Assembly: GCF_003018115.1 (NCBI RefSeq)
Contig: NZ_CP027457.1
DNA length: 64,000 nucleotides
Direction: 5' to 3' (one strand)
From: Escherichia coli
Lineage (GTDB): Bacteria; Pseudomonadota; Gammaproteobacteria; Enterobacterales; Enterobacteriaceae
Shown here: positions 60,101 to 63,100 of the stretch, piece by piece
Layout of the letters: each line of letters starts with the position of its first letter
How positions within the stretch are numbered: position 1 is the stretch's first letter
Made by a program: the position numbers

Positions 60101-63100
60101 CGATAATACCGCCATTGCTGGGATAGCTCGCCCCCAGGCGCGCATAGGCATAACCGGAAAACATCGCCACAATACCGCCAAAAGCAAAGGCGACCCAGGT
60201 CGAGGCTTCCATTAGCAACGCAGCCTGCCCCAGCAGCGCGAAGATCCCCGCCCCCACCATTGCCCCAATACCGATGGAAACGACATTCCATAGACCGAGA
60301 GGTTTGTTACCGTTATTACCTTCCGTGTTCATCATGATCAGCCCTTAAACACGTTATAGCCGAGTTGCTTAGCGACCGATGTCACCATTTTTTGACCGCG
60401 AACACTGTTGCCTTCTTCGTCCAGCGGTGGTGAGAACGCGGCAATTCCCATCACGCCAGGGACGACCGCCAGAATACCGCCACCTACACCGCTTTTGCCC
60501 GGTAAACCAACACGATACGCCCAGTCACCGGAGCGACCATACAGCCCTTCCATCATCATTTCGGCCAGAATGTACGGCACGTTGTCGGCCTGAAGAACGC
60601 GTTTATGCGTCAACGGATTCACACCACCCGCCGCCAGCGTCGCGCCAAGCGTTGCCAGTTCAACAGTATTGATGAGCGTGGAGCACTGACGGGTGTACAC
60701 GTCACAGGCTTCCATTGCATCACAATAGAGATATCCGGCGGAGTACAGCAGCCAGGCAATGGCCCGGTTATGGAAGTTGGTTGTTTGTTCCGACTGGTTG
60801 ACTTCGTCAGAGAGCGCTACCTGCTCACCAGCCAGTTGCTGTTGGATATGTAAAATTCGCTGCCAGCGTTGTTCAACATTTTCAGCGTTAATCAGGCTGG
60901 TGGTGGCAATGGCGCCAGCATTTACCAGTGGCGAAAGCGGTTTGCCGCCATGCAACTCTAAGGCGATAACTGAGTTAAAGGGCAATCCGGTCGGGTCAGC
61001 GCCAATTTTGTCCTGTACCGCCTGCGGGCCGACATCCTCTAACGCAAGGGCTAACGTACAGACTTTCGAGATGGATTCCAGCGCAAAGCGGTAATCACTG
61101 TCACCCGCACTATAGACCTTGCCATCGCAGGTCACGATAGCCACTGCCGCCAGTTGACCAGGCACATTCGCCAGAAAGGGAATGTAGTCGGCATTTTGAC
61201 CGCCGTTAAGTGAGTGAAATTGGGTGTAAGCCTGATCCACTGCCTGCTGTAATTTGTTTGCATCTAACATCTTTTGTTAACTCCTTTTTATAGATGCGGG
61301 AGGTAATTCCTCACCCCGGTGCCGATTTTGAGGCATCCTGATTTAACTTAGCACCCGCAACTTAACTACAGGAAAACAAAGAGATAAATGTCTAATCCTG
61401 ATGCAAATTGAGCCAATTTTTTAATCTTTACGGACTTTTACTCGCCTGGTTTATTAATTTCTTGACCTTCCCCTTGCTGGAAGGTTTAACCTTTATCACA
61501 GCCAGTCAAAACTGTCTTAAAGGAGTGTTTTATGTCACAAACTATCGACCTGACCCTGGACGGCCTGTCCTGCGGTCACTGCGTTAAACGCGTGAAAGAA
61601 AGTCTCGAACAGCGCCCGGATGTGGAACAAGCGGATGTGTCTATCACTGAAGCGCACGTTACCGGGACTGCCAGTGCAGAACAGCTGATCGAAACCATCA
61701 AACAAGCGGGTTATGACGCATCTGTAAGCCACCCAAAGGCTAAACCGCTGGCGGAGTCATCAATCCCGTCGGAAGCACTGACAGCGGTTTCTGAGGCGCT
61801 TCCGGCAGCGACCGCCGATGACGATGACAGCCAGCAGTTGCTGCTGAGCGGCATGAGCTGCGCCAGCTGTGTCACCCGCGTACAAAATGCGCTGCAAAGC
61901 GTACCGGGCGTCACTCAGGCACGGGTAAACCTGGCGGAGCGTACTGCGCTGGTGATGGGCAGTGCCTCCCCACAAGATTTAGTGCAGGCGGTGGAAAAAG
62001 CGGGCTACGGCGCGGAAGCGATTGAAGATGACGCTAAACGCCGCGAGCGCCAGCAGGAAACCGCCGTCGCTACGATGAAGCGCTTCCGCTGGCAGGCGAT
62101 TGTCGCACTGGCGGTGGGTATCCCGGTAATGGTCTGGGGGATGATCGGCGATAACATGATGGTCACCGCTGACAACCGCAGCTTGTGGTTGGTTATCGGC
62201 CTGATAACCCTGGCAGTGATGGTTTTCGCCGGCGGCCATTTTTACCGCAGTGCATGGAAAAGCCTGCTGAACGGTGCGGCGACGATGGATACGCTGGTGG
62301 CGCTGGGTACGGGTGTGGCGTGGCTCTATTCGATGAGCGTCAACCTGTGGCCGCAGTGGTTCCCGATGGAAGCGCGGCATCTTTACTATGAAGCCAGTGC
62401 GATGATTATCGGTCTGATTAATCTCGGTCATATGCTGGAAGCGCGCGCACGTCAGCGTTCTTCAAAGGCGCTGGAGAAATTACTCGATTTAACTCCGCCG
62501 ACGGCGCGCCTGGTTACTGACGAAGGTGAAAAAAGCGTGCCGCTGGCGGAAGTTCAGCCAGGCATGCTACTGCGCCTGACGACGGGCGACCGCGTGCCAG
62601 TAGATGGCGAGATTACCCAGGGCGAAGCATGGCTGGATGAAGCGATGCTGACGGGCGAACCTATCCCGCAGCAAAAAGGCGAAGGCGATAGCGTCCATGC
62701 CGGGACAGTGGTACAGGACGGTAGCGTTCTGTTTCGCGCCAGTGCGGTTGGCAGCCATACCACGTTATCAAGGATTATTCGTATGGTGCGCCAGGCCCAG
62801 AGCAGCAAGCCAGAAATCGGTCAGCTGGCGGATAAAATCTCAGCCGTATTTGTGCCGGTAGTAGTGGTGATTGCGCTGATCAGTGCGGCAATCTGGTATT
62901 TCTTTGGTCCGGCACCGCAGATTGTCTATACCCTGGTGATTGCCACCACGGTGCTGATTATTGCCTGTCCGTGTGCGCTGGGGCTGGCGACGCCGATGTC
63001 GATTATTTCCGGCGTCGGGCGGGCGGCTGAGTTTGGCGTGCTGGTGCGGGACGCCGACGCGCTGCAACGCGCCAGTACACTCGATACCGTCGTGTTCGAT

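Follow-up and report, generated by a model that had tools for sequence, protein, structure and literature searches.

The copA promoter of Escherichia coli K-12 (PcopA) is reportedly a CueR-dependent promoter of the MerR type, a description attributed to Outten in 2000, to Stoyanov in 2001 and to Yamamoto and Ishihama in 2005. The PcopA complex has been studied by cryo-EM, and the published promoter combines a CCTTCC-N7-GGAAGG core with a 19-bp spacer, the box ending 2 bp short of the -10 element (PMC8169799). The copA-cueR divergon of Salmonella has the regulator of the locus analysed here and a CueR box of the same kind within a 19-bp spacer, but in Salmonella cueR adjoins copA, with neither glsA-ybaT nor an island in between (PMC1526738). 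In E. coli O157:H7 EDL933, the site between ybaT and cueR holds O-island 28 (OI-28; tolC28, rtxA28, rtxB28, hlyB28 and hlyD28), a T1SS/RTX adhesion system that is activated by RstA and Ca2+ and required for early colonisation, as characterised in 2025 (PMC12758282). The role of OI-28 in adherence and colonisation has been demonstrated in O157:H7 and O145:H28 only, and the island has also been annotated as the siiEA locus in UMN026 (PMC3256949).

We compare these systems with the copA locus contained in a 64,000-nt stretch of an E. coli genome (contig NZ_CP027457.1), hereafter the window. The elements of the copA promoter, the gene that follows it and the two neighbouring genes are located as follows:

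61462 to 61492, plus strand: copA promoter core, read directly from the sequence as TTGACCTTCCCCTTGCTGGAAGGTTTAACCT
61462 to 61467, plus strand: -35 element TTGACC
61468 to 61486, plus strand: 19-bp spacer of the copA promoter
61487 to 61492, plus strand: -10 element TAACCT of the copA promoter
61466 to 61484, no strand assigned: CueR core binding dyad CCTTCC-N7-GGAAGG, a motif match
61520 to 61525, plus strand: Shine-Dalgarno sequence AAGGAG of copA
61532 to 64000, plus strand: copA, Cu(I)-exporting P-type ATPase, annotated as copA in RefSeq
60338 to 61270, minus strand: glsA (ybaS), glutaminase, divergent from copA, by annotation; 98.2% nucleotide identity to K-12 glsA
59043 to 60335, minus strand: ybaT, APC-family permease, by annotation; 98.1% nucleotide identity to K-12 ybaT

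Read against PcopA, the segment 61462-61492 is very probably the canonical, CueR-activated copA promoter of the MerR type, which is already textbook. The earlier note had placed a ccttcc-N7-ggaagg dyad in the extended spacer of this promoter and had taken the CueR target to be intact. Both statements are borne out: the dyad is read at 61466-61484, within the 19-bp spacer, and alignment with the K-12 copA promoter reveals zero differences from the -35 element through the copA ATG, with the same box, spacer, 2-bp gap and downstream gene. Differences from K-12 MG1655 in the glsA-copA intergenic region amount to four substitutions in 261 positions, all of them farther upstream than the -35 element. 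The arms of the dyad can be extended to 7 bp (ACCTTCC-N7-GGAAGGT, 61465-61485); the core box, which ends at 61484, is separated from the -10 element by 2 bp and lies 40 bp before the copA ATG (61532). Strain GF3-3 and Escherichia sp. MOD1-EC7003 have the same 31-bp promoter core, and 5356 of the 5426 complete E. coli genomes carry the 46-bp stretch at 61455-61500 without any change. The copA gene itself is truncated by the end of the window, with its last 11 codons and stop codon missing; its 823 open codons specify nine amino-acid differences with respect to K-12 CopA (96.5% nucleotide identity), and the CopA(Z) frameshift region is that of K-12, without change.

Across the 64-kb window, the exact dyad is matched once, and allowing up to two mismatches yields three matches against 1.79 expected. 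This count is near chance expectation, and the case for a CueR site is therefore made by position and conservation instead of number. The two additional matches, each with two mismatches, were considered as a second CueR box and rejected, both falling within coding sequence and at chance level. A standard promoter scan with spacers of 16-18 bp returned no match at the copA promoter, as expected for a MerR-type spacer of 19 bp, and TTGACC-19-TAACCT was the best site in our own rough position weight matrix (PWM) scan allowing that length. A scan against Rfam gave no match near the copA promoter; the sole match in the window is a REP-type naRNA4 element at 30137-30214.

Four sequence attributes of PcopA are found in this strain: the dyad, the geometry of a 19-bp spacer, a copA orthologue downstream and a cognate CueR encoded in the genome. 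Following the mechanism established for PcopA, which we infer for the present strain, a CueR dimer would sit on the dyad within the over-long 19-bp spacer, and Cu(I)-bound CueR would bend and under-twist the DNA, allowing sigma-70 RNA polymerase to reach both the -35 and the -10 elements. Since promoter and regulator are intact and CueR is diffusible, copper induction of copA would be expected to resemble that of K-12.

The gene for the regulator lies on the far side of a block of DNA that K-12 lacks. The block, its genes, the segments aligned with K-12 and cueR are the following:

24487 to 30081: BLAST block 1, aligned with K-12 520000-514407 at 99.1% identity
32722 to 33225: BLAST block 2, aligned with K-12 514400-513898 at 93.7% identity
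59015 to 64000: BLAST block 3, aligned with K-12 513896-508911 at 97.3% identity
33226 to 59014, minus strand: 25.8-kb block absent from K-12, by BLAST against K-12, with clean boundaries
57350 to 58705, minus strand: gene for a TolC-family (tolC-like) outer-membrane protein; TIGR01844, 416 bits, above cutoff
36464 to 57241, minus strand: giant BapA/SiiE-type adhesin, one reading frame of 6925 aa, by domain matches
34298 to 36460, minus strand: LssB-type ABC permease/ATPase (hlyB); TIGR03375, 838 bits, above cutoff
33126 to 34301, minus strand: HlyD-family adaptor (hlyD); TIGR01843, 328 bits, above cutoff
58986 to 58999, minus strand: RstA box sequence TAATTCAAATTACC, an exact match to the published box and a predicted site upstream of the tolC-like gene
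32722 to 33129, minus strand: cueR, from the coordinates of its reading frame, with the ATG at 33129

CueR is 135 aa long and carries a single, conservative change with respect to K-12 (D103N; 94.1% nucleotide identity for the gene), with residues C112 and C120 kept, and it scores above cutoff with both the NCBIfam equivalog NF007590 (308 bits, cutoff 244) and TIGR02044 (206.6 bits, cutoff 147.4). Between the cueR ATG and the -35 element of copA we measured 28,333 bp in the present strain; in K-12, where the two lie at 513,993 and 511,449, the distance is 2,544 bp. These values agree with the earlier note, which had put cueR some 28 kb away, beyond a T1SS operon, and had given a spacing of only a few kb for K-12. 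The greater distance, 28.3 kb instead of 2.5 kb, is due to the OI-28/siiEA block between ybaT and cueR, which raises the number of genes separating copA from cueR from two in K-12 to six. In O157:H7 PV15-279, the spacing between promoter and cueR is about 28.0 kb.

The three BLAST blocks are collinear with K-12. The DNA between the second and the third encodes a complete T1SS gene set, consisting of the TolC-family protein, the ABC permease/ATPase and the HlyD-family adaptor, together with the adhesin. The domain scan of the adhesin covered its first and last 1000 aa and identified BapA_N, Big_13 Ig-like repeats (eight stretches in the first 1000 aa), FG-GAP (FG-GAP_3) and a C-terminal RTX domain (HemolysinCabind); in the closest genome, that of GF3-3, RefSeq names the protein BapA-related adhesin SiiEA (siiEA). 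Compared with OI-28 of O157:H7 EDL933, the block occupies the same site between ybaT and cueR, is collinear and has the same gene set (PMC12758282). Judged from this correspondence, it is O-island 28 of O157:H7, already known and characterised experimentally. The two differ in that OI-28 of EDL933 has two RTX genes (PMC12758282), whereas the adhesin of the present strain is encoded in one reading frame. The RstA box TAATTCAAATTACC has been reported upstream of tolC28 in O157:H7 (PMC12758282), and O157:H7 genomes match the cueR/hlyD/hlyB junction at 98.2% identity. An island-type junction is present in 955 of the 5426 complete E. coli genomes (approximately 18%), O157:H7 included, and a K-12-type junction in 4458, the block being absent from 82%.

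Two features at the edges of the block bear on the direction of change between these arrangements:

33130 to 33225, minus strand: last 96 nt of hlyD, present in K-12 as a frameshifted remnant, by alignment and translation
59009 to 59031, minus strand: terminator-like hairpin just past the ybaT stop codon, identified by scan as GCGCAGTAC-TGCCT-GTACTGCGC, followed by CTTTGTCTTT

On the ybaT side, the edge of the block (59014/59015) falls 28 bp beyond the ybaT stop codon, and the other edge (33225/33226) falls within hlyD, 96 bp upstream of the cueR ATG. Most of the ybaT-cueR spacer of K-12 consists of the last 31 or so codons of hlyD; it translates as VVAVDIRTGKK and, after the loss of 1 nt in an A-run, continues for 19 residues, where the intact gene of the present strain encodes 33 residues. 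The HlyD profile TIGR01843 aligns with the present gene up to its final position (422/422), so the residues at the 3′ end belong to HlyD proper and do not derive from native DNA captured by the gene. The fold of the ybaT hairpin reaches -16.6 kcal/mol (z -4.67) in the present strain, against -6.8 kcal/mol (z +0.86) for its K-12 equivalent: the K-12 junction bisects the hairpin, with the 3′ arm of the terminator removed, and no terminator-like site was found in the K-12 ybaT-cueR spacer. The hlyD remnant and the halved terminator point to K-12 as a deletion derivative. Taken with the outgroup genomes described below, this strongly indicates that, of the two E. coli haplotypes, the one with the island came first, and that the K-12 arrangement arose from it through one deletion of 25.8 kb. 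Such a deletion would have left the last 31 or so codons of hlyD, frameshifted, ahead of cueR, and would have taken away half of the ybaT hairpin, its 3′ arm.

For outgroup comparison, species-representative genomes were scanned with a cueR 5′ pattern, which matched in a small sample of four Escherichia genomes; for three of them the comparison reached no farther than about 1.1 kb upstream. In three of the four (E. whittamii, Escherichia sp. E1V33 and a divergent genome labelled E. coli), hlyD stands directly upstream of cueR. The fourth, Escherichia sp. MOD1-EC7003, carries a K-12-type scar with the identical junction and the identical 1-nt loss, so the scar appears to stem from one old event. 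The scan gave no pattern match from E. albertii, E. fergusonii, Salmonella or the main E. coli reference.

The opposite history, which the earlier note had implied in speaking of an insertion, would make a K-12-like copA-glsA-ybaT-cueR order ancestral and have the adhesin island insert into it, splitting the regulator from its target. The absence of the block from most complete E. coli genomes is in keeping with such an event, as is a GC content of 59-63% across most of the block (36000-55999), which tapers at both edges and stands clearly above the 46-55% of most flanking sequence; the OI-28 paper itself uses the term acquisition (PMC12758282). The K-12 spacer nevertheless contradicts this history for the K-12 arrangement and renders it improbable, since the spacer is not empty but holds 96 nt homologous to the 3′ coding end of hlyD, with a frame-breaking loss of 1 nt, and the residues of this remnant correspond to the conserved C-terminus of the HlyD family and not to native sequence taken up by the gene. 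The K-12 junction moreover runs through the strong ybaT terminator, which only island genomes possess in intact form, and the Escherichia species-level genomes are predominantly (3/4) of the island type. Nor does the copA promoter serve as a boundary marker for an insertion, as had been proposed in the same note, for it and the nearer edge of the block are 2.4 kb apart, separated by glsA and ybaT. Deletion in K-12 is compatible with a foreign origin of the island: its high GC content points to earlier horizontal acquisition, and the block was probably acquired in this way, so that the word "insertion" would apply to a more remote period. The deletion scar of K-12 and its halved terminator appear to be small additions to what is known of this locus; no description of them was found in the literature searched, and the OI-28 paper discusses neither the K-12 remnant nor the overlap with cueR (PMC12758282).

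The start codon of cueR overlaps the stop codon of hlyD (ATGA), and any effect of the island would hence act through the transcription of cueR, which we consider the sole plausible route from the island to copper homeostasis. The genes upstream are closely packed, with a 3-bp gap between the adhesin gene and hlyB and an overlap of 4 bp between hlyB and hlyD, making two 4-bp overlaps in all. Scans of hlyB-hlyD found neither a sigma-70-like site matching at 9 or more of 12 positions nor a strong terminator, and in the 96 bp that precede cueR in both haplotypes neither the consensus scanner nor the rough PWM gave a promoter candidate with a score exceeding that of random 310-nt background tiles, simple consensus scans being prone to miss weak or non-sigma-70 promoters. 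The best candidates for a cueR promoter fell in allele-specific DNA with unremarkable scores and were discarded. Transcription of cueR could plausibly have a different source in each haplotype, namely read-through from siiEA-hlyB-hlyD in island genomes and from glsA-ybaT in K-12. The ybaST genes are copper-induced, reportedly not directly via CueR (PMC10903455), and a literature search found no paper that deals with a shared transcript of cueR and ybaT or hlyD.

A more specific proposal, which we regard as possible but somewhat unlikely, is that cueR forms the last cistron of an island operon, siiEA-hlyB-hlyD-cueR, with the supply of CueR under RstA/Ca2+ control, and that the deletion in K-12 joined cueR to glsA-ybaT, a unit responsive to copper and acid. 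The tight packing of the genes and the outcome of the promoter and terminator scans are consistent with it, as is the destruction of the ybaT terminator in K-12, where the spacer has no terminator-like site. An early comparative study lists a ybaS-ybaT-ybbI operon with cueR as its last gene (PMC1526738), and in an rstA mutant all OI-28 genes are down 3-5 fold (PMC12758282). The sequence scans on which the proposal draws are, however, of a kind that weak or non-sigma-70 promoters escape, and the OI-28 paper, silent on cueR, makes no mention of copA or copper either (PMC12758282). The output of CueR is, besides, set mainly by Cu(I) occupancy and proteolysis, so that a modest change in mRNA may lack a phenotype (PMC5329002). 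Extending the proposal so that cueR is the terminal OI-28 cistron, perhaps translationally coupled, with RstA and Ca2+ setting the supply of the copper sensor and an ancient deletion placing K-12 cueR under glsA-ybaT through loss of the ybaT terminator, gives a scheme that we hold to be unlikely. In yet another reading, copA regulation would suffer from the additional 25.8 kb, because a regulator whose gene lies farther off would find its target less efficiently; the general literature offers in its favour the argument that genes for bacterial regulators tend to be located close to the genes they control. The direct divergence of copA and cueR in Salmonella speaks for it as well (PMC1526738). 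Against it, the promoter and CueR are both conserved, and the 28-kb spacing is that of all O157:H7 genomes and of about 18% of E. coli. In K-12, a further target of CueR is cueO, at a distance of hundreds of kb from cueR; being diffusible, acting in trans and controlling so distant a target, CueR should not be affected by distance alone. It is accordingly unlikely that distance affects copper homeostasis, and the weakened target search in particular is very improbable. A site at yacC-yacK/cueO had been noted previously (PMC1526738).

With a textbook promoter and CueR box, and an island already published as OI-28, the separation of copA from cueR matters little as originally stated. For comparative work, the K-12 ybaT-cueR spacer is better treated as a deletion scar than as an empty insertion site. 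For genetic work, the overlap of the cueR start with the hlyD stop and the lack of an evident independent promoter are reasons to check cueR expression in strains with deletions of hlyD28 or of the whole of OI-28: should cueR indeed be the terminal cistron of the island operon, lambda-Red deletion of hlyD28 or of the entire island could be polar on cueR.

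Since a second segment missing from K-12 (30082-32721) adjoins cueR on the side opposite OI-28, the 25.8-kb adhesin block between ybaT and cueR, DNA absent from K-12 borders the regulator gene on both flanks. The features that bear on the two flanks are as follows.

30082-32721: segment absent from K-12, between ybbJ and cueR, on the opposite cueR flank from OI-28
30137-30214: REP-type element, matching Rfam naRNA4 at 74.7 bits
30994-32010: protein of 338 aa that carries a YadA membrane anchor, encoded in the ybbJ-cueR segment
59009-59031, minus strand: ybaT terminator hairpin, strong and intact in the window strain

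Besides the anchor protein, the ybbJ-cueR segment (30082-32721) codes for three small hypothetical proteins. Of 5426 E. coli genomes, 1349 carry this segment at a coverage of at least 80%, which makes it commoner than OI-28. K-12 carries related copies of the REP-type element (30137-30214) between ybaQ and copA, and about 25 copies are present per genome. On the ybaT side, the K-12 deletion junction cuts the terminator hairpin in half (counterpart region at 7870-7915 of L001, the K-12 side of the junction comparison), and no terminator-like site was found in the K-12 ybaT-cueR interval.

Between these flanks, the window cueR allele (32722-33129) shares 94.1% nucleotide identity with that of K-12, with 24 differences and a single amino-acid change, whereas the neighbouring genes are closer to K-12 (96.5-98.8%). 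Among Escherichia lineages, cueR alleles lie 20-39 nt apart, whatever the junction type.

Other genomes vary further at the locus. Escherichia sp. MOD1-EC7003 (L006 6838-6845) has the K-12-type scar, that is, a ybaT-cueR spacer with a frameshifted hlyD 3′ remnant, and also lacks an equivalent of window positions 60475-61168, comprising most of glsA. Escherichia sp. E1V33 contains about 1.3 kb of unmatched DNA directly downstream of cueR (L004 1626-2946), which the window does not have. In E. coli strain SCPM-O-B-8794 (L003), two inserted nucleotides close to the 3′ end of hlyD, roughly 50 nt upstream of cueR (GCTGTGGATTATC versus GCTGGATTATC), would shift the frame of the last hlyD codons; the CueR of this strain has a variant C-terminus, HHKAEC, and its frame meets no stop codon within 408 nt.

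Within OI-28, the adhesin gene (36464-57241) forms one 6925-aa frame in the window strain, whereas for EDL933 the published account of OI-28 gives two RTX genes. The internal repeats of the window adhesin share 72-75% mutual identity, and the bulk of its differences from GF3-3, the closest genome (98.3% identical overall), is clustered there.

In K-12, a CCCAAAG slippery site in copA serves the programmed frameshifting that yields the CopA(Z) chaperone. This site (61732-61738) and its surroundings are identical in the window. Upstream of the studied region, the minus strand holds a 1409-aa reading frame at 17027-21256.
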